A stretch of DNA of 37,301 nucleotides from a virus (taxonomy: Duplodnaviria > Caudoviricetes). Shown here in pieces: positions 399-37,278 of this stretch. The stretch's first letter is position 1, and the number at the start of each line of letters is the position of its first letter. The stretch spans positions 1 to 37,301 of IMG/VR virus record IMGVR_UViG_3300016478_000029, one strand, 5' to 3'. A model generated the notes under the pieces. It ran no database searches and was not told the origin of the DNA. It saw only the letters and a program-made list of their open reading frames with translations. The position numbers and the translations under genes were made by a program.

Positions 399-584
399 TC
401 AATGTAACGTTTGGTTTGGGTCTGTATCGACCATGTGATACAGCTTCGTTGTTGCTGCTGACAGCATATCCAAGACAGTGCTTTCTTCCATGTTTTCGCT
501 GAAGTACAGATACAAGTTTCCATCTGTAATTGACAAAATAACTAGGGCTTCAGAGTCTTGAATCATCTCTTCTAATTCACTCAA
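399..584 (-). CDS. Hypothetical acidic protein
   Basis: ORF fills the gap between polymerase and SSB. Probable TTG start overlaps the polymerase stop; start uncertain. Confidence 0.55.
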   Translation of the reverse strand: MSELEEMIQDSEALVILSITDGNLYLYFSENMEESTVLDMLSAATTKLYHMVDTDPNQTLH

Positions 585-2293
585 TGGGTATCCTTCCAAG
601 TTAGTCCTGCATTCCACTCTCCTGTTAAAGGACAGCGTAGGTTGAAGTAGCGACCTGCTTCTTCGATTGCCTCCACTGCCATCTTACCAACAACTTCCTC
701 TTTTCCCTGCTCAACTTCCATCTGCCACTCGTCGTGTACATTAGCAACGAAGTGTACATCTATTCTAGCACACTTTATCTTCTTTTGCAACAGTACCAAC
801 GCTTTTTTCATCACAATCGCACCTGCCCCCTGAAGAAGCGAATTAAGTGCTGCGTGCTCGGAGCGTACCCATATCTTGCGACCATCAAGCCCCGGTACAT
901 AGCCCTTACCCGCATAGACGGCAACTTTATCTCGTAGTTTCTGTAGGGAGGGAGTCGCCCTAAGAAATCTGGAAATAAGTCTTTTACCCTCTGTCGGCCC
1001 ACCCCCAACAATAGAACCGATCTTTCCCGGCCCAGCACCGTAGAGGAACGCATAGATGAACGTCTTTGCATGATCCCTCGTTGGTAGCCCTGCTGCTTTC
1101 TGGTTCTTCGTGTGGACATCCGTTCCGTCCTTACTCGATCCCTCAACGACAGTTTTGACATACGCCGAATCCCTCATGTAATGTGCCAACATTCGCAGCT
1201 CTAAGCCGCTAGCATCAGCACCTACTAATGAATAACCATCCCTAGCCTTGAAACATGCACGACACTCAGGGCCAAACTCAGACCCGCTGTTAGGAATCTG
1301 TGCCATGTTAGGGCTATGATGGGTCATTCGACCAGTAACAGCACCATTAGTGATAACACGACCGTGAATAGCACCATCATCCTTCACCTCATCGAACCAC
1401 GATGAAATCTGTGAGACACGTTTTTGGAGTAACAGGTATCGTGCCATCAGTTTCGCTTCGGGTAGGTCGATTTTTGACAGAACCCTTTCGTCGATGATGA
1501 TGTTACCTTTTTCTGTTACCTTGTCAAACTTGACACCCAGCCCCTGAAGACGTTTCGCAATCTGTTGACGACTACCGGGATTGAACATCTCCACATCGTC
1601 TTTAAGGCGTTTACCAGTCTTCGCAGATACCCTTTCTGTAACGATCGGCGGAAACACACTTTGCAAGTTGCCTTCAATATCAGCAAGTTCACTAGAAACC
1701 TGCGATAGTAGCGACGTAGCAGCCTTGCGGTCGAAGAAGAAGCCTCGTTCTTCCTGTTGTCGCACAATGTTTGCCACAGCGTGTTCAAGCGCGATCGACT
1801 CACCCCAGTCGTTGACTTCATTGCTCAATCTTTCATAAACACGAACCAATAACTCGACATCTCGTTTGCAATACGCAGCCATCAGTGGGATATCAGGGTT
1901 GTTCCAGTGCGACATATCTTTCTTGTCATACTGTCTAACACCCTTACGTCGCCAATACAGACGCTGATAGTCACTCTTCTTCTTCCCGCCCAAACGTTTG
2001 CCCCATGCGTCGAGACTGTGACCCCCTTCGATGTCGGGACTGAATAAACGACTGAGAAGCAACGTATCCATCGATTTCTTCAAGGAGAGCGTCGTCCCCC
2101 AGCAGCGATTCAATACTGGCCCATCGAAGCCGATTAAGTTGTGTGCGATCACTTTGTCGGCTTTGTTTATCAAGGGTATGAGAGTCTTCGGTTCTTTGTG
2201 ACATATGTACTGTGCAGATTCCGTATCGTACGTGTAACACATCCAGATTTTACGATGGGTTGTGTCGGTCTCGATGTCTAGGAAGAGCGTCAT
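581..2293 (-). CDS. DNA polymerase family A (T7 gp5-like) with 3'-5' exonuclease
   Basis: ExoI LDIET, ExoII HNLIGFD, ExoIII YCKRDV; motif A DASGLELR, motif B AKTFIYAFLYG, motif C VHDE. Alternative start at 2314. Confidence 0.97.
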   Translation of the reverse strand: MTLFLDIETDTTHRKIWMCYTYDTESAQYICHKEPKTLIPLINKADKVIAHNLIGFDGPVLNRCWGTTLSLKKSMDTLLLSRLFSPDIEGGHSLDAWGKRLGGKKKSDYQRLYWRRKGVRQYDKKDMSHWNNPDIPLMAAYCKRDVELLVRVYERLSNEVNDWGESIALEHAVANIVRQQEERGFFFDRKAATSLLSQVSSELADIEGNLQSVFPPIVTERVSAKTGKRLKDDVEMFNPGSRQQIAKRLQGLGVKFDKVTEKGNIIIDERVLSKIDLPEAKLMARYLLLQKRVSQISSWFDEVKDDGAIHGRVITNGAVTGRMTHHSPNMAQIPNSGSEFGPECRACFKARDGYSLVGADASGLELRMLAHYMRDSAYVKTVVEGSSKDGTDVHTKNQKAAGLPTRDHAKTFIYAFLYGAGPGKIGSIVGGGPTEGKRLISRFLRATPSLQKLRDKVAVYAGKGYVPGLDGRKIWVRSEHAALNSLLQGAGAIVMKKALVLLQKKIKCARIDVHFVANVHDEWQMEVEQGKEEVVGKMAVEAIEEAGRYFNLRCPLTGEWNAGLTWKDTH

Positions 2294-2310
2294 GGGAGAC
2301 TTGTTATCCC

Positions 2311-2475
2311 TCAAAACGGTGCCTCCGGGGTGTCGGTGATCAGTTTGTTAAGCTGAGCAGCGCGGACAAGTTTGTACGCTTCCTCAACCTCTTTCAACTG
2401 TTCATCGTTTAACCGACCAAAGGGCCACATCTTAGACACACGGTCAATGATCTCGTTTGCCTCTTCCAGCGTCAT
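2311..2475 (-). CDS. Small hypothetical protein (54 aa)
   Basis: Hand translation MTLEEANEIIDRVSKMWPFGRLNDEQLKEVEEAYKLVRAAQLNKLITDTPEAPF; GGAG RBS; fills the gap exactly. Confidence 0.65.
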   Translation of the reverse strand: MTLEEANEIIDRVSKMWPFGRLNDEQLKEVEEAYKLVRAAQLNKLITDTPEAPF

Positions 2476-7736: not shown

Positions 7737-7882
7737 TCAGCTCCTTTAACAAGTTTATAAAGTCCGATTATATCACCATTTTCATCGGTGTCATTCCATT
7801 GCATCCATAACAGGGCATAACCCCTGCTGGTGCTACTGAATGCGGTGATACCACTTGAACGATGCACTATGCGATAAATCAT
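7733..7882 (-). CDS. Small hypothetical protein (49 aa)
   Basis: Hand translation MIYRIVHRSSGITAFSSTSRGYALLWMQWNDTDENGDIIGLYKLVKGAE; ATGA overlaps at both ends; GGAGG RBS. Confidence 0.65.
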   Translation of the reverse strand: MIYRIVHRSSGITAFSSTSRGYALLWMQWNDTDENGDIIGLYKLVKGAE

Positions 7883-8136
7883 GATGTTACCTCCATGCGT
7901 ACCCCTTCAATTGTCAAAGCCTTAATTGTAGCACGGTTTACTGCCCTATAGCCCTTGTTTTGAACGTCGTATATGGTTATGTACTGTTCGGGATCTAAAG
8001 TACTTACACCTCCCTTTAGATGCTTTTTAACACCCAAGCGGCCCGTTAGCTTTCGCAGGGTACCATCTTTTTTAATAAATTCTACAGTGACGAATCGACC
8101 TTCACTGTTTAAGACAAAAAAATCAAGTTTGTTCAT
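7879..8136 (-). CDS. SH3/WYL-like beta-barrel protein (DUF2693-like)
   Basis: FVTVEFIKKDGTLRKLTG...YDVQNKGYRAVN pattern. Confidence 0.65.
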   Translation of the reverse strand: MNKLDFFVLNSEGRFVTVEFIKKDGTLRKLTGRLGVKKHLKGGVSTLDPEQYITIYDVQNKGYRAVNRATIKALTIEGVRMEVTS

Positions 8137-8991: not shown

Positions 8992-9648
8992 TTAAACTCC
9001 TTGTGAATGTTTCATGATACGGATAACTTTAGCCATTTTTGCACCGTGAGCAGGGTATGCAATAGTGGCTACGTTTTTATCCCAGCAAGCCCGGCATCCG
9101 TCGCATTTACCGCTGCGTTGGTATGCTTCGCAGACTGTAACGCCTAACGGTGCATTGTCTGCATCGGGAATGATAACGCTACCATGCACCCAAGTATCAA
9201 ACGTACCGTCAACTGTATCGGCACTAGGGCGTACCATAACATTGTCCAATGCCTGCATATCGGCTAACACCTGCGAAAACTTAGGAAATTTATGCATGCG
9301 TGTAGGTAGCCAATGCTTACACCACGGTGTACGCTGCATAACCTGCAAAATCTTTTCAGCCAATCCTAATGCGTACATGTCGCCACTATCAAACCAGCGA
9401 AAGTAACGGCTAGAATCTAAGGATGCAACCATATCGTCAACCCAGCGATCACGCTTCCAGTCTTGTTTGTTGAACGCTCGCGGGGCTTTCACGTTCGGGT
9501 AATTATAGTTTCCCGTAGTGGCATAACACCCGCTGCAAGCTGCAACCAATGAACCATTAGCACCTATTGCACCCGGACATGTTTCAATGGCCTGCAGCGA
9601 CCATGATAGGATACCGTCAAGTTTGCTTGTTTTCGATAGTTTGATCAT
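8992..9648 (-). CDS. GP88-like (gene product 88 family) Cys-rich protein
   Basis: TCPG..ACSGCYA, FRWFDSGD, HWLPTR and C-terminal KCDGCRACW. Confidence 0.75.
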   Translation of the reverse strand: MIKLSKTSKLDGILSWSLQAIETCPGAIGANGSLVAACSGCYATTGNYNYPNVKAPRAFNKQDWKRDRWVDDMVASLDSSRYFRWFDSGDMYALGLAEKILQVMQRTPWCKHWLPTRMHKFPKFSQVLADMQALDNVMVRPSADTVDGTFDTWVHGSVIIPDADNAPLGVTVCEAYQRSGKCDGCRACWDKNVATIAYPAHGAKMAKVIRIMKHSQGV

Positions 9649-9662
9649 GTTAGGCCCCTTGT

Positions 9663-9737
9663 TCAGTATGCAAGCATTACACCGATTGCAGCGAATACTG
9701 CGAATGTCAGAATCATATAGATTGTGTCTTGTTTCAT
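9663..9737 (-). CDS. 24-aa hydrophobic peptide, first early ORF
   Basis: MKQDTIYMILTFAVFAAIGVMLAY; AAGGT RBS; lies just downstream of a promoter. Confidence 0.55.
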   Translation of the reverse strand: MKQDTIYMILTFAVFAAIGVMLAY

Positions 9738-9774: not shown

Positions 9775-9802
9775 ATTGTATCGCATAACATAGCCTTGTC
9801 CA
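9775..9802 (-). promoter_or_regulatory. Sigma70-like early promoter
   Basis: TGGACA-16-TACAAT on the minus strand, upstream of the early operon. Confidence 0.6.
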
Positions 9803-9826
9803 TCTACTTTACAATTCTTTACATTT

Positions 9827-9842
9827 CTGTATGGATGTACAG
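9827..9842. promoter_or_regulatory. LexA (SOS) box 1
   Basis: CTGT-ATGGATGT-ACAG. The reverse complement CTGTACATCCATACAG matches the E. coli sulA operator core as I recall it. Confidence 0.8.
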
Positions 9843-9871
9843 TATTTTATGCCTTGTCTGCCTTGTCTGTG

Positions 9872-9900
9872 TTGACTACTGTATGTCTGTACAGTACTGT
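9872..9900 (+). promoter_or_regulatory. Putative LexA-repressed sigma70 promoter
   Basis: TTGACT-17-TACTGT; box 2 fills the spacer and box 3 covers the -10 element. Confidence 0.5.
9877..9896. promoter_or_regulatory. LexA (SOS) box 2
   Basis: TACTGTATGTCTGTACAGTA, a full TACTGT-N8-ACAGTA site. Confidence 0.85.
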
Positions 9901-9914
9901 ATAGAATGTCAGTA
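9895..9914. promoter_or_regulatory. LexA (SOS) box 3
   Basis: TACTGTATAGAATGTCAGTA (CTG-N10-CAG), sharing a TA with box 2. Confidence 0.65.
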
Positions 9915-9945
9915 GGGGCACCTTCACCGTCACTCACGCCTACCC

Positions 9946-10005
9946 TGTGGATAACCTGTGGATAACTATGATGACCTGCATAGTCTGTGGATAACCTGTG
10001 GATAA
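9946..10005 (-). promoter_or_regulatory. Four perfect DnaA boxes (TTATCCACA)
   Basis: TGTGGATAA at 9946, 9957, 9986 and 9997, forming two copies of CTGTGGATAACCTGTGGATAACT. Confidence 0.85.
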
Positions 10006-10172
10006 CTTTCATGGCTGCGTAGAAACAGGGCCGGGGGAGGGGGTTGTCGCTGTTGATAAATTGTTGCACCCTCTTAGATACAAAAAAGGGTAGATTTAAC
10101 AGATCATTAATGAATTATTAAAGAACTTAAAAGCACATTAAATACACCTTAAATTACATAGTCAAAAAAGAC

Positions 10173-10201
10173 TTGACAAACCTCTAAAAACCTGTTAACA
10201 T
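10173..10201 (+). promoter_or_regulatory. Sigma70 promoter
   Basis: TTGACA-17-TAACAT with an extended TG, upstream of ORF 10233. Confidence 0.7.
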
Positions 10202-10232
10202 CAAGGCATCGAGTAACTTTTAAAGGATTAAC

Positions 10233-10598
10233 ATGACAACAACACAACTGGATGAAAAAATAATGAAACAGAAGTGGTACAGTAAGAAGGCCAGCACTAA
10301 GAACAGGGTAGACAAGAATGGAAATCCTATAGAGTTTTTATTGACCTTTGAAGACTACTATGACCTGTATAACACCTTTGGTAAGTACCCGTCAGCTACC
10401 CATGTGTTATGTAGAAAAGATGACCTTGGTCACTATGAAAAAGATAACGTGTACGTTGCTCACTATTTAGATAACCTGTCAGAAGCTCATGGATTAACAA
10501 GTGATCTAGATAAAAAGATCAATGAGTACTGTAAAAAAACTGGTTATAAGCGAAGGATTGTTAAAAGCATGTTGAAGAGAAACGAGCTAGTGTTGTAA
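10233..10598 (+). CDS. HNH-like endonuclease-related protein
   Basis: IEFLLTFEDY...LCRKDDLGHYEKDNV...N pattern; AAGGA RBS; AT-rich. Confidence 0.55.
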   Translation: MTTTQLDEKIMKQKWYSKKASTKNRVDKNGNPIEFLLTFEDYYDLYNTFGKYPSATHVLCRKDDLGHYEKDNVYVAHYLDNLSEAHGLTSDLDKKINEYCKKTGYKRRIVKSMLKRNELVL

Positions 10599-10658
10599 AA
10601 AAACTACATAGGTGTTGACAAGCAGAATCCTCACAGAACCCCTATGTAGGGTATAACA

Positions 10659-10855: not shown

Positions 10856-11305
10856 ATGAACAACGAAGAAAACAATGAAGCAGCATCGCTGCAACAAGTT
10901 AGTAATCCTTCATCTGTTAATCCCTTAGCGAAGCGTGGCAGAGGACGACCAAAGAAGAGTGAGATTGCAGCCGCGAAGAAGCGCCCTGTTGGACGACCAA
11001 AGGGAGATGCTTCAGCTATCGAGGAATTCAAAGCTCGTTTAATTGCTTCACCGAAGAGTAAACTAGTCTTTGATACAATCCTTGATGCAGCGTTGGATGA
11101 TGAACACAAGAATCAAGCTGCTGCGTGGAAACTGTTAGTTGATCGTCTGCTTCCCATGTCGTATTTTGAGAAGGATAAAAACGGAGGAGGTCGTCCTTCT
11201 GTTAACATCACTATCAGTGGCATCGGGGGTTCGGTGAATATTGGCGAGGGCGGCGATGAAAACGAGGATGATGATTCCTCACAGAACGACTACATAGATG
11301 TCTAA
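10856..11305 (+). CDS. Terminase small subunit (putative)
   Basis: AT-hook-like RGRGRPKK and VGRPKG; QAAAWKLLVDRLLP helix; position upstream of terL. Confidence 0.75.
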   Translation: MNNEENNEAASLQQVSNPSSVNPLAKRGRGRPKKSEIAAAKKRPVGRPKGDASAIEEFKARLIASPKSKLVFDTILDAALDDEHKNQAAAWKLLVDRLLPMSYFEKDKNGGGRPSVNITISGIGGSVNIGEGGDENEDDDSSQNDYIDV

Positions 11306-11615
11306 TTATCGTTACCCGCTAATACCCGTTATCATTGTTCCTTATGCTGTCGTTAAACTAGAACCCCACGCTGGTGTATTATGGGTTCACTGTACTGTCA
11401 CCGATTTCTCCAAGAGCATCTTCAAAGATATGGATGTTCAGTGGAGAATCCTGACAGAACACCTACAGCAAGACCTCTACGTGTTATACGATCCTTCCGT
11501 TAACACACCATCTAAAAAGTATATTGAACATTTCGGTTTTCGTTATCTTAAAACAATAGAACACGAGAATAAAGAATACCAAATTTGGAAAAGGGATAAA
11601 CTATGGGCGGCGTAG
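11298..11615 (+). CDS. Hypothetical protein, possibly GNAT-fold
   Basis: WVHCTV...KYIEHFGFRY resembles the GNAT C-terminal motif. Confidence 0.5.
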   Translation: MSNYRYPLIPVIIVPYAVVKLEPHAGVLWVHCTVTDFSKSIFKDMDVQWRILTEHLQQDLYVLYDPSVNTPSKKYIEHFGFRYLKTIEHENKEYQIWKRDKLWAA

Positions 11616-12517
11616 TATCTGACATTGGAAATGCTGTTGGCGATGTCGTCGGTGGCGTTGTAGGCGGTGTAAAAGACGTTGTTAGCAATGCCGTTGATAC
11701 CGGCGTTGGTCTTATCAATGATATTCCTGTTGTCGGTAACATTGCCGACAATGTGCTAGGCCTCGATCCTAACGGAGGTGGTATTGTCCCTATTGTTAAA
11801 GATGTAGGAACAGCCGCTGCATTAAGTGGCCTAGGAAGTGCTGTCGGTGGTCTGTTAACTGGCAGTACAGCTGTCGGTGCTGGAGCCGCTGCTGATGCTT
11901 CTTTTATCGCTGCTGACGCCGCACAGCTGGCAGCACAGGGGATCGGTGAGTCTCAGATCGGTGAAATCCTAGCGTCTTCTGGTGTTTCTTCTGGCGCTGC
12001 TAGTCTTGCTGCTTCTATGGCAACCAATGGTGTGTCAGAAGGGTTGATGACAGACCAACTAACCAACTTGTCATCTAACACAGGTCTGCTTACTCAGTCG
12101 TCTGACGCTAATGCTGTTGCCGAAATAGGACAAGCTGACGCTTCTCAGTTGGCAGCACAAACAAACAATAACGTAGCTGCTATCGAGCAAAACCTTGTTG
12201 CTGCTGGCTATGACCCTCTGGAAGCTGCTTCGATGGCTCAAAATGCTGTTTTAGCGTCTTCTTCGCCAACGGTGGATATGTACAAGAAGTTCTCTGACTA
12301 CATGCAGCAGAACCCGTCTGTAGCTAATAAGCTGGCTGGTGTACAGCAAGCGCCCACAACGACAACAACAGCGCAACCTGTGACAACAAATGTTATCCAA
12401 CAACAGCCTCAAGACGGTGGATTCTATGTTCCTTTTGGTGGAACAGGTCTTGAGAACCCCTTTGCTCGTTCCGCTAAAGAACGTCAGAGTCTAGTTGGTT
12501 CGATTTTCGGTTTTTAA
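11603..12517 (+). CDS. Gly/Ala-rich putative internal virion protein
   Basis: Glycine-zipper N-terminus MGGVVSDIGNAVGDVVGG; internally repeated ADAxQLAAQ units. Confidence 0.55.
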   Translation: MGGVVSDIGNAVGDVVGGVVGGVKDVVSNAVDTGVGLINDIPVVGNIADNVLGLDPNGGGIVPIVKDVGTAAALSGLGSAVGGLLTGSTAVGAGAAADASFIAADAAQLAAQGIGESQIGEILASSGVSSGAASLAASMATNGVSEGLMTDQLTNLSSNTGLLTQSSDANAVAEIGQADASQLAAQTNNNVAAIEQNLVAAGYDPLEAASMAQNAVLASSSPTVDMYKKFSDYMQQNPSVANKLAGVQQAPTTTTTAQPVTTNVIQQQPQDGGFYVPFGGTGLENPFARSAKERQSLVGSIFGF

Positions 12518-12520
12518 TCT

Positions 12521-13771
12521 ATGGCTGATCTAAAAATTGATCTACTTCCGTGGCAGCAAAAAGTTTGGAATGACCAGCATCGTTTCAAAGTGGTTGCAGC
12601 AGGCCGACGAACGGGAAAAAGTAGGTTGGCAGCGTATCTCCTCATTGTATATGCACTGCAAGCCGACAAAGGACACGTCTTCTACGTTGCTCCTACCCAA
12701 GGACAGGCGCGTGACATCATGTGGCAGACGCTGCTAGAGGTTGGGCATCCTGTTATTTCCGGCTCGCACATCAACAACTTGCAAATACGCCTCATCAACG
12801 GTGCCACCATTTCTCTTAAGGGTGCTGATCGCCCTGAGACAATGCGCGGTGTGTCGTTAAAGTTCCTCGTTATGGACGAGTATGCCGACATGAAGCCCGA
12901 GGTGTGGGAACAAATCTTGCGTCCTGCGCTGGCTGACCAGAAGGGTGATGCTCTATTCATCGGCACTCCGATGGGTCGTAACCACTTTTATGACCTCTAT
13001 CAGCACGCTGGTAAGGGCGATGACCCAACATTCACATCATTTCACTTCACATCCTTTGATAATCCCTTGTTAGACCCCAACGAAATCGAGGCAGCTAAGA
13101 AAAGCATGTCTTCTTTTGCGTTTCGTCAGGAATTTATGGCTTCATTTGAGGCTCAGGGAGGTGATTTATTCAAAGAAGAGTGGATTAAGTTTGACGAAGA
13201 GGAACCCGATCGTGGAGATTATTACATTGCTATCGACTTGGCAGGCTTTGATGATGGAACCAAATCCTCTAAGAGTAAGCGGTTGGACAACAGTGCTATT
13301 GCTGTCGTCAAAGCCAACGAAGATGGGTGGTATGTTCAAGAAATCATCTATGGTCGGTGGGAAGTAAAGCAGACGGCTAAGAAAATATTTGATGTTGTTC
13401 AGAAGTATGAGCCGGTAGCGGTGGGTATTGAACGTGGTATTGCCCGTCAAGCTGTTATGCCCTACCTGACAGACATCATGAAGCGTCAACAAACCTTCTT
13501 CCGAGTGGACGAGTTGTCTCATGGTAACAAGAAGAAAACAGATCGTATCGTCTGGGCACTTCAGGGTCGCTTTGAGAACAAACAAATCGTCTTGAATAAA
13601 GGTGACTGGAACTACGAATTCCTCGATGAACTGTTCCAATTCCCAAACCCGATGGTGCACGATGACTTGATCGATGCTCTGTCATACATCGAACAACTCG
13701 CTAAAGTGTCTTATGCCCTCGACTACGAAGAAGAGGACTATGAGATGATAGATAACGTGTCAGGATACTAA
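12521..13771 (+). CDS. terL: Terminase large subunit
   Basis: Walker A AGRRTGKS, Walker B LVMDE, GTP coupling motif; nuclease IDLA and HDDLIDA. Confidence 0.97.
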   Translation: MADLKIDLLPWQQKVWNDQHRFKVVAAGRRTGKSRLAAYLLIVYALQADKGHVFYVAPTQGQARDIMWQTLLEVGHPVISGSHINNLQIRLINGATISLKGADRPETMRGVSLKFLVMDEYADMKPEVWEQILRPALADQKGDALFIGTPMGRNHFYDLYQHAGKGDDPTFTSFHFTSFDNPLLDPNEIEAAKKSMSSFAFRQEFMASFEAQGGDLFKEEWIKFDEEEPDRGDYYIAIDLAGFDDGTKSSKSKRLDNSAIAVVKANEDGWYVQEIIYGRWEVKQTAKKIFDVVQKYEPVAVGIERGIARQAVMPYLTDIMKRQQTFFRVDELSHGNKKKTDRIVWALQGRFENKQIVLNKGDWNYEFLDELFQFPNPMVHDDLIDALSYIEQLAKVSYALDYEEEDYEMIDNVSGY

Positions 13772-14245: not shown

Positions 14246-16219
14246 ATGGAAGAACAAAACAATTACCCAGATCAGAAACTAGAATCATGGGTCATGGACA
14301 AGGTGGAGTCGTGGACTGATCACTACAATGGCTCCTACCGCGATAAATTCGACGAATACTACCGTCTGTGGCGCGGTATTTGGGACGCTTCTGATCGTAC
14401 CCGAGACAGCGAGCGTAGTCGTCTCATTTCGCCTGCTCTGCAACAAGCTGTTGAGAGTTCTGTGGCTGAAGTGGAAGAAGCTACGTTTGGTCGTGGTCAA
14501 TGGTTTGACATCCGTGACGATGTTGCCGATCAAAACCCACAAGACATCGCTGTTCTACGCAAAAAGCTGACAGAAGACTTCAACTTCACCAAGACACGCA
14601 AGGCTGTTGCTGAGTGTTTGCTGAACGCTGCTGTGTTTGGCACTGGTATTGGTGAGTTGGTGTTGGAAGAGATTGATGATCTTACCCCTGCATCGCAACC
14701 TGTAATGGACGGCGCACTGAAGGCGGTGGGTGTTAACAAGCGTAAGCGCGTGGTTGTTAAGCTGCGCCCTATCATGCCTCAGAACTTCCTGATCGACCCC
14801 GTAGCGTCGTCTATCGAGGAGTCTATCGGTGTTGTTATTGACGAATACGTTCCAAAACACCAAGTTGAATTGAATATTCAGAATGGCATCTACAATGATG
14901 TAACGCTGGATGTGGCTAACACAGATTCTAAGCTGGAACCCGACCAAGACTTGACGATGTACACTGAGGATAAGGTACGTCTAACCAAGTATTACGGACT
15001 TGTTCCCCGTCATCTCTTCGTTGATGCAACTACCGAGAAAGACTCAGAAGAGCAGGACACCAGCGACCTGACCGAAGGCGAAACAGATAAAGAAACTGGC
15101 TATGTTGAGGCCATCGTTATCGTCGCTAACGGTGGTGCGCTGCTCAAGGTGGAAGAATCTCCCTTCATGATGCAGGATCGCCCTGTTGTTGCTTTCCCGT
15201 GGGACGTTGTTCCGGGTCGCTTCTGGGGTCGTGGTGTCTGCGAGAAGGGTTATAACAGCCAGAAGGCCTTGGATGCTGAGTTGCGTGCTCGTATCGATGC
15301 TCTGGCCCTTACCGTACACCCAATGATCGCTATGGATGCATCTCGTATGCCTCGTGGCTCTAAGTTGGAGGTTCGTCCGGGTAAAACCATCTTGACCAAC
15401 GGCAACCCAGCAGAGATTCTGCAGCCCTTCAAGTTTGGTAGTCTTGATCAGGTGACTTTTGCTCAAGCCGGTGAACTGCAGAAGATGGTGCAGATGGCTA
15501 CTGGCGCTATCGACGCAGCTGGCATCCCCGGCAGCATCAATGGCGAGGCAGCTGCTGGTGCTGTTTCCATGTCTCTGGGTGCGATTATCAAGCGTCACAA
15601 GCGCACGCTGATCAATTTCCAAGAGAGTTTCTTGATTCCGATGATCGAGAAGACGGCGTGGCGTTACATGCAATACTCGCCGGAGGAATATCCTGTCAGT
15701 GATTACCGTTTTGTGCCTTCTTCCTCGCTGGGTGTTATTGCTCGTGAGTATGAAGTAACTCAGTTGGTGCAACTTTTGCAAACACTGGGTCAAGATAGCC
15801 CGATGTACCCGATGTTGGTGGAAGCTGTTATCGAAAATATGTCGATCAGCAACCGCGACGAACTAAAGGCCAAGTTGCAACAGATCAACCAACCGACTCC
15901 CGAAGCAGCTGCAGCGCAACAGCAGCAGATGCAGGTTCAGATGGCTCAGATGCAGGCTCAAATGGCTGTTCTGCAAGCTCAAGCTCAGAAGTATCAAGCC
16001 GAGGCTCAGAAGACAATGGTTGAGGCTCAGTTGGAACCTCAAGTTGTTCAGGCTAAGTTGGCAGCTGCCATCTCCACCAATTTGCAAGCTGGTAACGCCG
16101 ATGACGCTGAGTTTGCTAAACGGGCGAAGATGGCTGAACTGATGCTCAAAGAACAGGATATTAAGAGTAACGAGCGTATCGCTATGGCTCAAATGGCTAC
16201 GAAGCGTTCAGTTCAATAA
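14246..16219 (+). CDS. Portal protein
   Basis: 657 aa, after terL; FGTGIG and FWGRG motifs; Q-rich C-terminal helical barrel. Confidence 0.92.
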   Translation: MEEQNNYPDQKLESWVMDKVESWTDHYNGSYRDKFDEYYRLWRGIWDASDRTRDSERSRLISPALQQAVESSVAEVEEATFGRGQWFDIRDDVADQNPQDIAVLRKKLTEDFNFTKTRKAVAECLLNAAVFGTGIGELVLEEIDDLTPASQPVMDGALKAVGVNKRKRVVVKLRPIMPQNFLIDPVASSIEESIGVVIDEYVPKHQVELNIQNGIYNDVTLDVANTDSKLEPDQDLTMYTEDKVRLTKYYGLVPRHLFVDATTEKDSEEQDTSDLTEGETDKETGYVEAIVIVANGGALLKVEESPFMMQDRPVVAFPWDVVPGRFWGRGVCEKGYNSQKALDAELRARIDALALTVHPMIAMDASRMPRGSKLEVRPGKTILTNGNPAEILQPFKFGSLDQVTFAQAGELQKMVQMATGAIDAAGIPGSINGEAAAGAVSMSLGAIIKRHKRTLINFQESFLIPMIEKTAWRYMQYSPEEYPVSDYRFVPSSSLGVIAREYEVTQLVQLLQTLGQDSPMYPMLVEAVIENMSISNRDELKAKLQQINQPTPEAAAAQQQQMQVQMAQMQAQMAVLQAQAQKYQAEAQKTMVEAQLEPQVVQAKLAAAISTNLQAGNADDAEFAKRAKMAELMLKEQDIKSNERIAMAQMATKRSVQ

Positions 16220-16760
16220 ACTCTGCGATGGCCCAGTGTTCGTCCGCTGTGCCATCGTTTTTAATCCTATTAGCCCGCTGAGAAACGATAAAGACATTGC
16301 CCTTCACATAACCTCGCTCAGGGATAAGACAGTCAAACGAAGGGCTGTTGTCTGAAATCTCTTCATTGAAGTAGTTTAGTTCAATGTTGAGAATAGGGCA
16401 ATGAGAAGGAAACTCTAAATCACCAAATTCAATATCCCATGCTTTGCCGATTCGAGTTGCATTCGCTTTCTTTTGTCGAAACTTCTCTCGCATCGTCTGA
16501 TAAACATAGGATTTACGTAGATCGGCATCTTTCCAGTTAACACCCCATTTAGCAATCATCCTATCTGCATGTGCATTTTCTTCGTTTTTAGCGCGAATAG
16601 AACGAGCACTGATTTTAAGTTTTTTGCAGATTTGAGATACACGTTGTTTTGATACCTTGAAGTCGATTGCTTCTTGGATTTCAGAGTAACGCTTACCCTG
16701 CGCTGCCAGTGTACAGATAGTGTTAAGGTCTTCTTGGGTTAGTGTAGGTCTAAATACCAT
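16197..16760 (-). CDS. HTH plus HNH-like endonuclease, antisense insertion
   Basis: YSEIQEAIDFKVSKQRVSQI helix-turn-helix; CPIL...PSFD..PERGYVKGNV..S.RANRIK; AAGGAG RBS. Confidence 0.75.
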   Translation of the reverse strand: MVFRPTLTQEDLNTICTLAAQGKRYSEIQEAIDFKVSKQRVSQICKKLKISARSIRAKNEENAHADRMIAKWGVNWKDADLRKSYVYQTMREKFRQKKANATRIGKAWDIEFGDLEFPSHCPILNIELNYFNEEISDNSPSFDCLIPERGYVKGNVFIVSQRANRIKNDGTADEHWAIAEFIELNAS

Positions 16761-19207: not shown

Positions 19208-19366
19208 ATGGCTATTTTCAAGTGTAAAGTTAGTGGGAACACTGTCGAATTCAAACAACAACACGACATTGATCAAATGCGACAGCATCCCGGATACGAA
19301 GAGGTGGTAGAGGTAGTTAAAGCACCTACACCCCCTGTTAAAAAACAAGAGAAGAAGGCTGAGTAA
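19208..19366 (+). CDS. Small hypothetical protein (52 aa)
   Basis: Hand translation MAIFKCKVSGNTVEFKQQHDIDQMRQHPGYEEV...; AAGGA RBS; TAATG overlap. Confidence 0.7.
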   Translation: MAIFKCKVSGNTVEFKQQHDIDQMRQHPGYEEVVEVVKAPTPPVKKQEKKAE

Positions 19367-19881
19367 TGGAAACTAAATGGTGTTATCATTGTTCTTCACA
19401 AAAACCTTTAACATCATTTAGCCAAAACAAAAGTAAAAAAGATGGCCTCGCTGATGAATGTTTAGATTGTAAAAGACAAAGAGACCGTGAGTACGCTAAG
19501 AAGCACAGAGAAGAAGCCAAAAAAAGAGCTTCAGAGTGGTTTACTGCAAATAAACACGATCCTGTCTTCATGAAACGTTTTAAAGAAAATCAAAAACGTT
19601 ATCAAGCAAAGACTAAAGATAAACACGCAGCTATACAAGCAAAACGAAGAGCTTCAAAACTACTAGCAACTCCTAAATGGTTGTCTGAGGCACAATTAAA
19701 AGATATACAGACAGAGTATGCTTTGAGAGACTGGTGCTCTAAGGTCATGGGAATAGAGTTTCATGTAGATCATATTGTCCCATTAAAAGGAGAAGAGGTC
19801 TGTGGCTTGCATGTTCCGTGGAATTTGAGGGTTATACCGGCTAAGGTAAACTTGACAAAAGGAAACAAACATGTGGTGTGA
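19366..19881 (+). CDS. HNH homing endonuclease
   Basis: CYHC..CLDC N-terminus; HVDHIVPL..VCGLHVPWNL...N. Confidence 0.9.
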   Translation: METKWCYHCSSQKPLTSFSQNKSKKDGLADECLDCKRQRDREYAKKHREEAKKRASEWFTANKHDPVFMKRFKENQKRYQAKTKDKHAAIQAKRRASKLLATPKWLSEAQLKDIQTEYALRDWCSKVMGIEFHVDHIVPLKGEEVCGLHVPWNLRVIPAKVNLTKGNKHVV

Positions 19882-35776: not shown

Positions 35777-35996
35777 CTTGTTCCTCTTCCATCCACATAA
35801 TCATTTCGCTGACACGTTGATACACACCAACATACCCACAACCCTCTAGGAAGGCAGCGAATTGTAGCATGATAGGCATCCACGGTGTCGATTCACGAGT
35901 CATGTAGCTGTGCTCAATACTGGTTGTCGCTTCGGTTTCGTCATCGCTTTTGGCGTGAGTAAACTGAAACGACACAATCGGATCGTTATAACTCAT
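35742..35996 (-). CDS. Hypothetical protein
   Basis: AAGGA RBS; ATGA overlap. Confidence 0.65.
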   Translation of the reverse strand: MSYNDPIVSFQFTHAKSDDETEATTSIEHSYMTRESTPWMPIMLQFAAFLEGCGYVGVYQRVSEMIMWMEEEQDENSSHSGLSD

Positions 35997-36373
35997 CGGT
36001 TTTCCTTTCGTACCTTAGCCTCTGTCGTTGTCTTTGACTTATGACAGGGGCGACATAACACTTGAAGGTTATCAGTCTCACAGAACATACGATCGATGAA
36101 TGTTTCCCAATCTACAAAGCCTACCTCTGGATCGACTACAGGGGAAATATGATCCACCTGAACGTCCCGTAGAACAAACAAATCACCGCAATCAGCGCAG
36201 CAATAATGTTTAGCTTTGCGTCCTGTCCTCTTGTTAACCCTCTGACCAACACAAGCCTCCTCTAGAGCATCACGTTTCGGTTCCCAGCGCATCATCGCAC
36301 GCCGCAGGATACCAATAACCCAAGCCCTGAACTTAGCCGGTGTCCACTTATCACCGTTGTAGCTGTTTCTCAT
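35993..36373 (-). CDS. HNH endonuclease
   Basis: CADC..VQVDHI..NLQVLCRPCHKSKT. Confidence 0.85.
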   Translation of the reverse strand: MRNSYNGDKWTPAKFRAWVIGILRRAMMRWEPKRDALEEACVGQRVNKRTGRKAKHYCCADCGDLFVLRDVQVDHISPVVDPEVGFVDWETFIDRMFCETDNLQVLCRPCHKSKTTTEAKVRKENR

Positions 36374-36605
36374 ATTGATACAGCAGCTGTGCAAACCCTT
36401 CAACGAACCGTTCATCGTGCTGATGTTCACCCATTGTAAACATAATGGCATGAACTAACTCGTGATAAAACGTCACGTCTTTGGATTGTCCTGTTAGTCG
36501 TTTGTTAATGATGATCTGTGCGTTTTCTGGGTCGGTGAAGCCCAACTCAGTGCACTCACTTTCAACAACTTTCCAAGTAACACCAGCTAGTTTAAACTGT
36601 TTCAT
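36351..36605 (-). CDS. Small HExxH metallopeptidase-like protein
   Basis: TFYHELVHAI...HDERFVE; GGAG RBS. Confidence 0.7.
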   Translation of the reverse strand: MKQFKLAGVTWKVVESECTELGFTDPENAQIIINKRLTGQSKDVTFYHELVHAIMFTMGEHQHDERFVEGFAQLLYQYEKQLQR

Positions 36606-37278
36606 TCGGCGGCTCCCACATTTGGTTCTCTGTCCTGCGAAGCCACAACAGCCTTGCATCCTCTAACACACGTTCTTCGCCCATTACCTCCACACAAGAC
36701 CGGTACAGCTGGTATTCCGTCTTCGCATCGGCAAGGATTTTCTCCGCTTTCTTGGGGCCAATCCCCGGCGCACCCTTCACATTGTCTGCAATATCCCCCG
36801 TCAACACTTGGGTGTAGAAGAATCGCAGGCCTTGTTCCGGTGTTACCCATGTCTTTTCCCTTTTGTTAAAGTTGTAGTGCCAACCGGGAACCTGTAAGAA
36901 GTCTTTGTCGATAGAGACGATAACGCATTTATCAACACCCAATTCAGTGGCTCGGATGGCAATAGCATCATCTGCTTCTTGACCATCTGTTTCCACTGCG
37001 CCAAACGCCCATTTGACATACTCACGCAACGCTGGTAGGTGCTTTGGTCGTGGTTTGTCAACTCGGTTTCCTTTGTAGGGTGCTGTCTTTGCAATGTCAT
37101 ATCTAAAGTTGTTCTTTCCGGTGAGGTATAGTTCAAATTCATATACATCCTCCAAGTCAAACAACATCAAGTCTTCAAGAGAGGTAGCCATCGTAGTGAG
37201 TGCATACCCCTCTGGTTCATCTTCGGTGGTGGCAGCTACCCGATAACAGAGGATGTCAGCATCGAGTAGCGCAATCAT
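36592..37278 (-). CDS. 5'-3' exonuclease (T7 gp6-like)
   Basis: LLDAD, YKGNR, EADD, DKD and GDIADNVKGAPGIGPKKA. Confidence 0.95.
   Translation of the reverse strand: MIALLDADILCYRVAATTEDEPEGYALTTMATSLEDLMLFDLEDVYEFELYLTGKNNFRYDIAKTAPYKGNRVDKPRPKHLPALREYVKWAFGAVETDGQEADDAIAIRATELGVDKCVIVSIDKDFLQVPGWHYNFNKREKTWVTPEQGLRFFYTQVLTGDIADNVKGAPGIGPKKAEKILADAKTEYQLYRSCVEVMGEERVLEDARLLWLRRTENQMWEPPNETV

Follow-up and report, generated by a model that had tools for sequence, protein, structure and literature searches.

The stretch of DNA analysed here (the window, 37,301 bp) is a complete, circularly assembled phage genome, the source contig from a freshwater run being a closed circle of one unitig with flat depth. 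The genes are arranged in two opposed arms. The leftward arm encodes a Gp88-like protein, a primase-helicase, ThyX, a family A DNA polymerase, an exonuclease and a class II RNR, while the terminase, portal, capsid, tail and lysis genes lie on the rightward arm. The stretch at 9775-10201 is, on comparison with related phages, the predicted genome end of what is likely a virulent podophage. The features of the locus are as follows.

581-2314, minus strand: family A DNA polymerase with Tyr762 motif B (PHROGs and motif reading)
8992-9648, minus strand: Gp88-family early gene (PF17338, Pfam), first large gene of the early arm
9775-9802, minus strand: putative sigma70 early promoter TGGACA-16-TACAAT, a pattern call that would drive the leftward replication arm
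9825-9844 (core 9827-9842), no strand: predicted LexA box 1, 24 nt upstream of the early promoter -35, 4 mismatches to the E. coli consensus
9877-9896 (core 9879-9894), no strand: predicted LexA box 2, 3 mismatches to the E. coli consensus
9895-9914 (core 9897-9912), no strand: predicted LexA box 3, 18 bp from box 2 and ending 6 bp before the inferred repeat, 5 mismatches
9915-9939, plus strand: landmark A, conserved, left border and likely terminase cut motif, cut near 9921
9921-10067, no strand: inferred direct terminal repeat of 147 bp, at both virion ends (from contig ends of relatives and the repeat of relative G038)
9946-9965, minus strand: DnaA box pair 1, two perfect boxes, 11-bp period
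9986-10005, minus strand: DnaA box pair 2, two perfect boxes, 11-bp period
10033-10087, plus strand: landmark B, conserved clade-wide, with G-run, right repeat border and AGATACAAAA motif, cut after ~10067
10095-10598, plus strand: likely mobile insert with AT-rich tract, promoter (10173-10201) and 121-aa ORF (10233-10598), from a relative's skip and the distance to terS
10856-11305, plus strand: likely small terminase (terS), from position and an AT-hook, no family match
12521-13771, plus strand: terminase large subunit (TerL; PHROGs)

The first early gene is probably a hydrophobic ORF of 24 aa that has a ribosome-binding-like site (9663-9737, minus strand). The early arm also encodes a small IrrE/SprT-like metallopeptidase (36351-36659, minus strand) and a stand-alone WYL_2 protein (7879-8136, minus strand), which could target host regulators or defences. 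Two ORFs of 105 and 304 aa without a family match occupy the terS-terL interval (11298-12517), the spacing of which is highly variable among relatives. Four ORFs are endonuclease-like (10233-10598, 16197-16760, 19366-19881 and 35993-36451; three by PHROG match and one HNH-like by eye), and at least one of them was apparently inserted together with its own promoter.

The phage belongs to a large uncultured clade, with TerL proteins up to 84% identical in three IMG/VR scans. No close cultured relative was found: all 23 portal matches were at 21-28% identity, the best capsid match was 36% among the best 40 of 402, and the best TerL match was 44%, and partial, among the best 40 of 1742. No single-subunit RNA polymerase was found among the 61 ORFs of the complete genome, which speaks against placement in the Autographiviridae. 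Two opposed arms, a short repeat and a class II RNR are features of the Zobellviridae (cobavirus-like phages) and all are present here; membership was ruled out on capsid and portal similarity, the terminase likewise having no close cultured match.

The intergenic zone of the relatives conserves landmarks A (GGGT/RCY...CTCACAC) and B (G-run...ACCC...AGATACAAAA). Eighteen of 45 distinct contig ends located up to 780 nt left of B sit 40-135 nt from it (p = 3e-6), and 9 of 21 nearby contig ends, read by eye, start within about 1 nt of a single base, 12 nt before CTCACAC. One of these nine belongs to relative G038 (35,752 bp, TerL 71%), which has an exact 146-bp repeat running from that base to landmark B and containing two perfect DnaA boxes. 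The right border is shared by a long contig of G001 and the record G039, both of which terminate there. On the basis of (i) the contig-end pile-up, (ii) the G038 repeat and (iii) these right-border ends, the terminal repeat was placed at 9921-10067, with borders that derive from assembled contigs; early-side contig ends are scattered and insufficient alone to fix the border on that side. Landmarks A (9915-9939) and B (10062-10087) resemble inverted copies of a GGGT/RC motif flanking the repeat, and are a candidate terminase cut signature for the whole clade.

The AT-rich tract reported by the original prediction was confirmed (10095-10200, 75% AT). However, it probably belongs to an insert, because one relative's contig jumps from 10099 to 10615 and because the landmark-to-terS distance is longer here (828 vs. 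a median of 410 in relatives). The stretch 10095-10598 is thus likely a mobile insert rather than an origin element. Its 121-aa ORF (10233-10598) has an HNH-like motif by eye only; Pfam gave no support and no family was found.

Four perfect DnaA boxes (TTATCCACA, minus strand) are located at 9946-9954, 9957-9965, 9986-9994 and 9997-10005, forming two tandem co-oriented pairs of 11-bp period, with the pairs 40 bp apart. An 11-bp period is known for the low-affinity DnaA arrays of oriC. With a relaxed consensus the same four boxes are the sole matches across 37.3 kb, a count which is itself unremarkable (4 vs. 4.1 by chance), but the perfect boxes were expected at 0.34 per window and 0.004 per 430 bp, against four observed within 60 bp (shuffled windows: mean 0.37, maximum 3). 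As they lie inside the inferred terminal repeat, the boxes would be present at both virion ends, 26-85 bp from the end of the DNA. The LexA 20-mers at 9825, 9877 and 9895 are the three best matches of the window to the E. coli consensus (4, 3 and 5 mismatches; next best 6), and box 1 shares 19 of 20 positions with the sulA operator of E. coli. These boxes are located between the inferred repeat and the early promoter, on the early side. Four perfect DnaA boxes and three SOS boxes near an early promoter, as originally described, are therefore real, the former being unique and the latter the best of their kind in the window. The promoter itself is less secure: the pattern is present at 9802-9775, and relatives too have a leftward promoter in this zone, but promoter-like sites (including the rightward one at 10173-10201) total 5 in the window vs. 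4.0 by chance and so are not evidence on their own. A sulA-like rightward promoter under LexA boxes 2-3 (TTGACT-17-TACTGT) was set aside because its -10 hexamer belongs to any LexA box, similar calls being found at six other LexA-bearing loci. By these counts both site types are non-random, predicted host-protein sites in a phage without an integrase or repressor.

Conservation was examined in loci from the three IMG/VR scans (80 loci kept per scan), where 239 oriented loci yielded 141 with landmark B and 107 with 600 nt to its left. Set 1 comprises 91 distinct relatives besides the window, with sites counted over the 500 nt to the left of landmark B; because relatives enter the p-values as if they were independent, these are optimistic. 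Perfect DnaA boxes numbered 103 in these 45.5 kb vs. 12 in 817 kb elsewhere, a 154-fold enrichment, and were co-oriented 95:8. At least one box was found in 35 of the 91 relatives, two in 26 and four in 13. Their spacings are phased at 10.6 bp (R 0.54; R 0.52 for consecutive spacings above 12 bp), as expected for a cooperative DnaA oligomer. LexA boxes, carried by five of the 91, were found five times in the zone and not elsewhere (5 vs. 0, p = 4e-7), and lie between DnaA pairs in two relatives (L335 and L321). For set 2 the landmark pattern was the sole criterion (132 of 160 loci had the landmark, 66 relatives being new and distinct). It carried on its early side 11 DnaA sites in 5 genomes, 10 LexA sites in 8, 13 sigma54 sites in 9 and 26 Fur sites in 11, compared with none, none, none and 7 on the late side; the DnaA orientation bias was not repeated (6:5). 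Set 3 consists of loci picked because a DnaA box lies close to the G-run (36 of 80, of which 25 distinct; overlap with set 1 kept). Its orientation was 90:16 and its phasing R 0.71, and 1 of 25 carried LexA. Co-conservation of DnaA and LexA sites, originally proposed as a check, was not borne out by this comparison. Set 1 divides into 4 relatives with both, 31 with DnaA only, 1 with LexA only and 55 with neither (Fisher p = 0.07), and both were present together in just 1 of 66 relatives in set 2. Four other phages with a Gp88-like gene and no clade landmark (L154, L182, L174 and L186) have parS-like palindromes and perfect SOS boxes upstream of that gene.

The zone also contains sites for other host regulators. 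In de novo word counts the DnaA box came top, followed by TCTTATATAAGA-type, GCAC-N7-GTGC and TGGCAC-N5-TTGC words. Fixed motifs gave 56 sigma54 sites in 31 of the 91 relatives, 39 NtrC in 24, 28 SdhR in 11, 20 SlmA-like in 14, 10 Fur in 9, 9 IclR in 5, 5 parS in 5 and 7 LexA in 5. All of these counts exceed those of shuffles, the margin being smallest for LexA (shuffle mean 1.6, maximum 4), and CRP, FNR, matS and the alpha- and Gram-positive LexA motifs were at chance level in the same scan. The consensus sequences behind the labels sigma54, NtrC, SlmA-like, Fur, IclR and parS are those which we take to be standard; that for SdhR is as printed in PMC4494728. The SdhR motif was found in 28 of 61 Burkholderiales genomes (the order of the MAG to which G001 belongs) vs. 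3 for a reversed control, and at one Burkholderiales locus lies between mdh and a GntR-regulator gene, followed by sdhC (genes identified by eye from translations). The SlmA-like motif showed no enrichment in 41 candidate host genomes, which weakens that label. Two to five SdhR operators with a 23-30 bp period fill the repeats of five relatives (L144, L293, L324, L350 and L312), and SdhR governs TCA-cycle genes in Burkholderiales. CtrA-like TTAA-N7-TTAA words were seen 14 times in 12 of the 66 set 2 loci on the late side (400 nt right of B) and not on the early side, perhaps reflecting only AT-richness.

In the 63 relatives with both borders, the repeat itself holds 51 DnaA, 39 sigma54, 26 SdhR and 8 SlmA-like sites, and the next 150 bp on the early side 16 DnaA and 16 NtrC sites, NtrC being found mostly just outside the repeat; the 300 bp on the late side hold 7 sites in all. 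Comparison along a quick TerL tree (78 rows) indicated that the contents of this slot change between sisters. Three phages with identical or near-identical TerL carry four DnaA boxes with LexA (L335), three DnaA boxes (L352) and none (L355), and arrays also differ within further sister or identical-terminase groups (L246/L251/L243, L312/L334 and L359/L345). None of the listed motifs was found in 22 of the 91 relatives, nine of which have other repeated words.

Integrase, CI, Rep and Par had no match in the 61 ORFs searched with PHROGs, the 50 with Pfam or the 28 with NCBIfam, and six-frame searches of the window for PF00589 and PF13614 (ParA) found neither; serine recombinases and Rep families were covered by the ORF scans. 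No HTH or S24 match indicative of a conventional repressor was found in the window ORFs (PHROGs, Pfam). Since the contig is a closed circle, the absence of integrase, repressor and ParA extends genome-wide, about 20 small ORFs being without a family match. The original prediction was thus correct that no such gene is recognisable. The same holds in 36 relatives (18 of them at least 90% complete), where the tyrosine integrase PF00589 was not found and HTH_3 did not score above the cut-off, with one weak match. The genome also has markers of virulence, namely a Tyr762 polymerase, a class II RNR and a gp4-type helicase, and lacks the Leu762-type polymerase without RNR that correlates with temperate phages. 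Phe762 and Tyr762 have been reported solely, and RNR overwhelmingly, in virulent phages (PMC6302109).

A TerL scan of 185,579 prokaryote genomes returned only eight MAG contigs, mostly short, and none from an isolate. They are binned as Verrucomicrobiales, Sphingobacteriales, Flavobacteriales (three), Nitrosopumilus and Burkholderiales (two), and were probably misbinned. In one Burkholderiales MAG (G001, contig C1, ~358150-390534), a 32-kb relative is joined to a broken glcE-like host gene and ends at the repeat border. It was rejected as a prophage, as it has no integrase and its DNA continues up to the repeat border, where the contig stops, leaving a chimera or stray join. Whether a chimera or a host-phage hybrid molecule, the join is a weak hint of the host.

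It had been proposed that the phage persists as an oriC-mimicking episome, replicated by host DnaA and silenced by host LexA, which switches to its own replisome on DNA damage. Both site types are genuine and adjacent, neither integrase nor CI is present while small ORFs without a family match are, and IrrE-like and WYL-like ORFs occur, all of which would suit such an element. However, the DnaA boxes lie at a linear DNA end within a terminal repeat, and the anatomy of oriC is missing. AT content 5' of the first box is 53% vs. 75% in E. coli oriC, no AT-rich unwinding element was found on the side it occupies in oriC (5' of the TGTGGATAA-oriented box), GATC occurs once in the window region vs. 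11 times in oriC, no IHF consensus was found in that region, and a simple pattern for DnaA-trios matched 0 of 36 arrays. A cumulative GC-skew minimum in the region was rejected as evidence of an origin because gene orientation confounds the skew switch. Nor does the array appear to be a captured origin, since only one of the 61 candidate host chromosomes examined has a tandem perfect DnaA pair. An unpublished genome, G062, was among those sampled for the host counts (SdhR, SlmA-like and the tandem pair) and contributes nothing beyond them. The missing ParA, the Tyr762 polymerase and LexA boxes lying off the early promoter also argue against persistence, as do the relatives, most of which lack the sites; 8 of the 18 near-complete ones have no perfect DnaA box anywhere and no integrase either. 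The scatter of MAG contigs over unrelated phyla, with no isolate, points the same way, although likely hosts are poorly cultured. We consider a DnaA-replicated, LexA-silenced episome highly improbable. What stands of the original proposal is a set of non-random host sites in a phage without integrase or repressor; the dormancy switch does not.

DnaA might instead serve as a helper at an origin or concatemer junction, bending or opening DNA for the primase-helicase, or marking the repeat for duplication and terminase cutting, in a phage lacking an RNA polymerase of its own. Phased, co-oriented boxes between two inferred cut motifs and the skew minimum would fit. Against this stand the confounded skew, the modest AT content and absent trios, near-identical phages without boxes, and the occupation of the slot by non-replication factors, and we regard such a role as improbable.

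Gating of the lytic start by host state (lytic deferment or pseudolysogeny) would place the early promoter under a host regulator reporting a useful state; here LexA, aided by DnaA, would keep early transcription low until the DNA is damaged. For some relatives gating is clearly plausible. NtrC sites tend to be paired with a sigma54 promoter that points leftward and lies at enhancer distance (13 of 24 vs. 8 of 67, p = 8e-5), a geometry which is real transcriptional wiring and not mere occupancy, and by their motifs these relatives' early genes are apparently wired to the host nitrogen-starvation system. NtrC-type sites ~80-160 bp upstream of such a promoter were seen in L214, L213, L348, L172, L345, L326, L321 and L300 (600 nt left of B). 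In two sets the vicinity of the early promoter is also enriched in LexA boxes (5 vs. 0, and 10 vs. 0 on the late side). Precedents exist. CtrA sites in terminal repeats of Alphaproteobacteria phages, including virulent ones, were shown to be bound and to regulate, leading to the term 'lytic deferment' (Mascolo et al., 2022, PMC9437464), and both there and with Spo0A in phi29 the host regulator sites are concentrated in terminal repeats or gap regions (PMC9437464). That study concerns one promoter-tied regulator and found DnaA sites without positional bias (PMC9437464), whereas here at least six different factors share one slot and the LexA boxes are off the promoter. In tectivirus GIL01, LexA binds dinBox1 at promoter P1, and gp1 and gp7 are needed for stable lysogeny (PMC4551915). 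The present phage resembles GIL01/Bam35 in having canonical LexA boxes near an early promoter and no CI or integrase, but its boxes are 24-94 nt upstream of the -35 rather than on the promoter (itself a pattern call), are rare in the clade, and accompany a virulent-type replisome. The best leftward promoter is overlapped by a LexA box at none of the 15 landmark loci that bear such boxes; at the 11 loci where a promoter was called, again by pattern, the gap is 21-261 nt. Tandem sigma54 sites (up to five) and parS-like sites in or beside the repeat would be senseless as operators, and no means to maintain a deferred genome was found. As a general account of the slot, gating therefore appears unlikely to us.

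The original prediction had alternatively suggested that amplified genomes sequester DnaA and LexA. Widened to the whole slot, this would make the arrays DNA-encoded decoys, with DnaA titration stopping host initiation, LexA titration releasing SOS, SdhR titration derepressing TCA genes and Fur titration iron uptake. The sites are near-consensus, multi-copy and in untranscribed DNA, the LexA boxes are off the early promoter, and the SdhR motif was verified at the mdh/GntR-sdhC locus and across Burkholderiales genomes. By estimate, 100 genomes with four boxes each would rival chromosomal DnaA-box numbers. However, titration cannot act at entry, the sites are strongly biased to the early side, the many other host regulators filling the same slot must all be covered, and the IHF consensus seen in datA, with which E. 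coli oriC and this array share high-affinity DnaA boxes, was not found in the window region. Similar arrays are also carried by T7-like phages and by T5, which destroys host DNA within minutes (10.1101/866236), making titration of little use in T5. We keep decoys as a less likely rival explanation.

T5 provides a close parallel. Eight DnaA boxes were described in T5 iss and membrane anchoring was proposed, LexA being unmentioned in the available portion of that account (Davison, 10.1101/866236); the injection-stop mechanism is termed poorly understood elsewhere (PMC13250531). In T5 iss a DnaA box was found at 9510 and a 1-mismatch SOS box at 9409. Paired DnaA boxes with a neighbouring SOS-like palindrome in non-coding terminal-repeat DNA of a virulent phage are thus common to both, and a cis role in DNA entry has been proposed, though only proposed, for T5 (10.1101/866236). 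As far as described there, the T5 pairs are 3 bp apart, form inverted repeats ~9.4 kb inside a 10-kb repeat and are conserved in all 25 phages compared, whereas the present pairs, with a 2-bp separation, share one orientation, lie 26-85 bp from the end of a 147-bp repeat and can be swapped. T5-type A1/A2 genes had no match here, and the ~147-bp repeat is gene-free, unlike the long T5 repeat with its inverted repeats.

Cultured phages unrelated by capsid and portal also have arrays of three to six perfect DnaA boxes in or close to the genome end, which are unannotated in their records. Shigella phage A7 (Berlinvirus; NC_048180.1:1-177; L363/L379) has four in an exact 177-bp repeat, Klebsiella phage ZK1 (Molineuxvirinae; OK625527.1:1-200; L753) has six in its first 200 bp, and Microbacterium Squashvirus phages (e.g., OR159650.1:350-700; L364) have arrays near a genome end. 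No LexA box was found near these arrays in the stretches read. Tandem DnaA-box matches were also seen in several Microviridae records, small circular ssDNA phages without DNA ends; DnaA-dependent priming by the ABC primosome is a possible role there. Host-regulator sites in phage terminal repeats are thus known singly (DnaA in T5, CtrA), and a multi-regulator dock of the kind proposed here, in a short repeat and rapidly swapped within one clade, was not found in the open-access literature searched. Nor did that literature yield anything on arrays of host sites in the short terminal repeats of podophages.

Instead of a dormancy switch, the region is likely to be a docking site for host proteins whose contents can be swapped. 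Our tentative reading, to which we give somewhat less than even weight, is that the DnaA and LexA boxes are one version of an exchangeable array that would dock abundant host DNA-binding proteins and so coat or anchor the DNA end in cis. Proteins of a host that may be betaproteobacterial would dock on the terminal repeat and adjacent early DNA, and would act on the end that probably enters the cell first, the early end being the likely leader by analogy with T7. The coat may shield it from end-loading nucleases or end-sensing defences, or may keep it in the cytoplasm until transcription by host RNA polymerase begins from the early promoter. Selection would then favour occupancy and not the signal of each regulator. 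This reading is favoured because unrelated factors substitute for one another, several of them oligomerise on DNA, the sites concentrate in the repeat and on the early side, and T5 keeps its sites though destroying host DNA; the convergent DnaA arrays in T5, A7 and ZK1 also support it.

Several observations count against a coat. It is not visibly obligatory, as 22 of 91 relatives lack the listed motifs and only nine of those have other repeated words. The NtrC-sigma54 geometry argues for a transcriptional function, and the zone is the main untranscribed DNA, a position which fits decoys too. RecBCD displaces many bound proteins, and the sites could not block end capture itself because they start at least 26 bp from the tip. 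The orientation bias is absent in set 2, and most motif labels are presumed consensus sequences. The functions are not exclusive, and repeat-internal sites and promoter-side sites may do different jobs.

Short terminal repeats are usually regarded as serving packaging and the replication of ends; here they carry arrays of host-regulator sites that are hypervariable and near-consensus. In general terms, we would put just under an even chance on terminal repeats of lytic phages being plug-and-play docks, rewritten within this one widespread aquatic podophage clade faster than the terminase diverges (DnaA, sigma54, NtrC, SdhR, Fur, ParB, LexA), whose bound proteins protect or pull in the entering end or, as non-coding decoys, reprogram the host. 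The arrays form a natural substitution series for asking if a specific host signal is needed or just any protein bound at the DNA end, a question of signal or occupancy that has stood for the T5 injection stop since 1987, and cultured T7-like coliphages with similar arrays offer a tractable test system. The SdhR, NtrC, sigma54 and gamma/beta-type LexA sites hint at Burkholderiales hosts for the uncultured clade. LexA or DnaA boxes alone should not be read as lysogeny. If terminal repeats do act as such docks, they would constitute a general form of phage counter-defence or host takeover that requires no genes, which would also explain the injection-stop boxes of T5.
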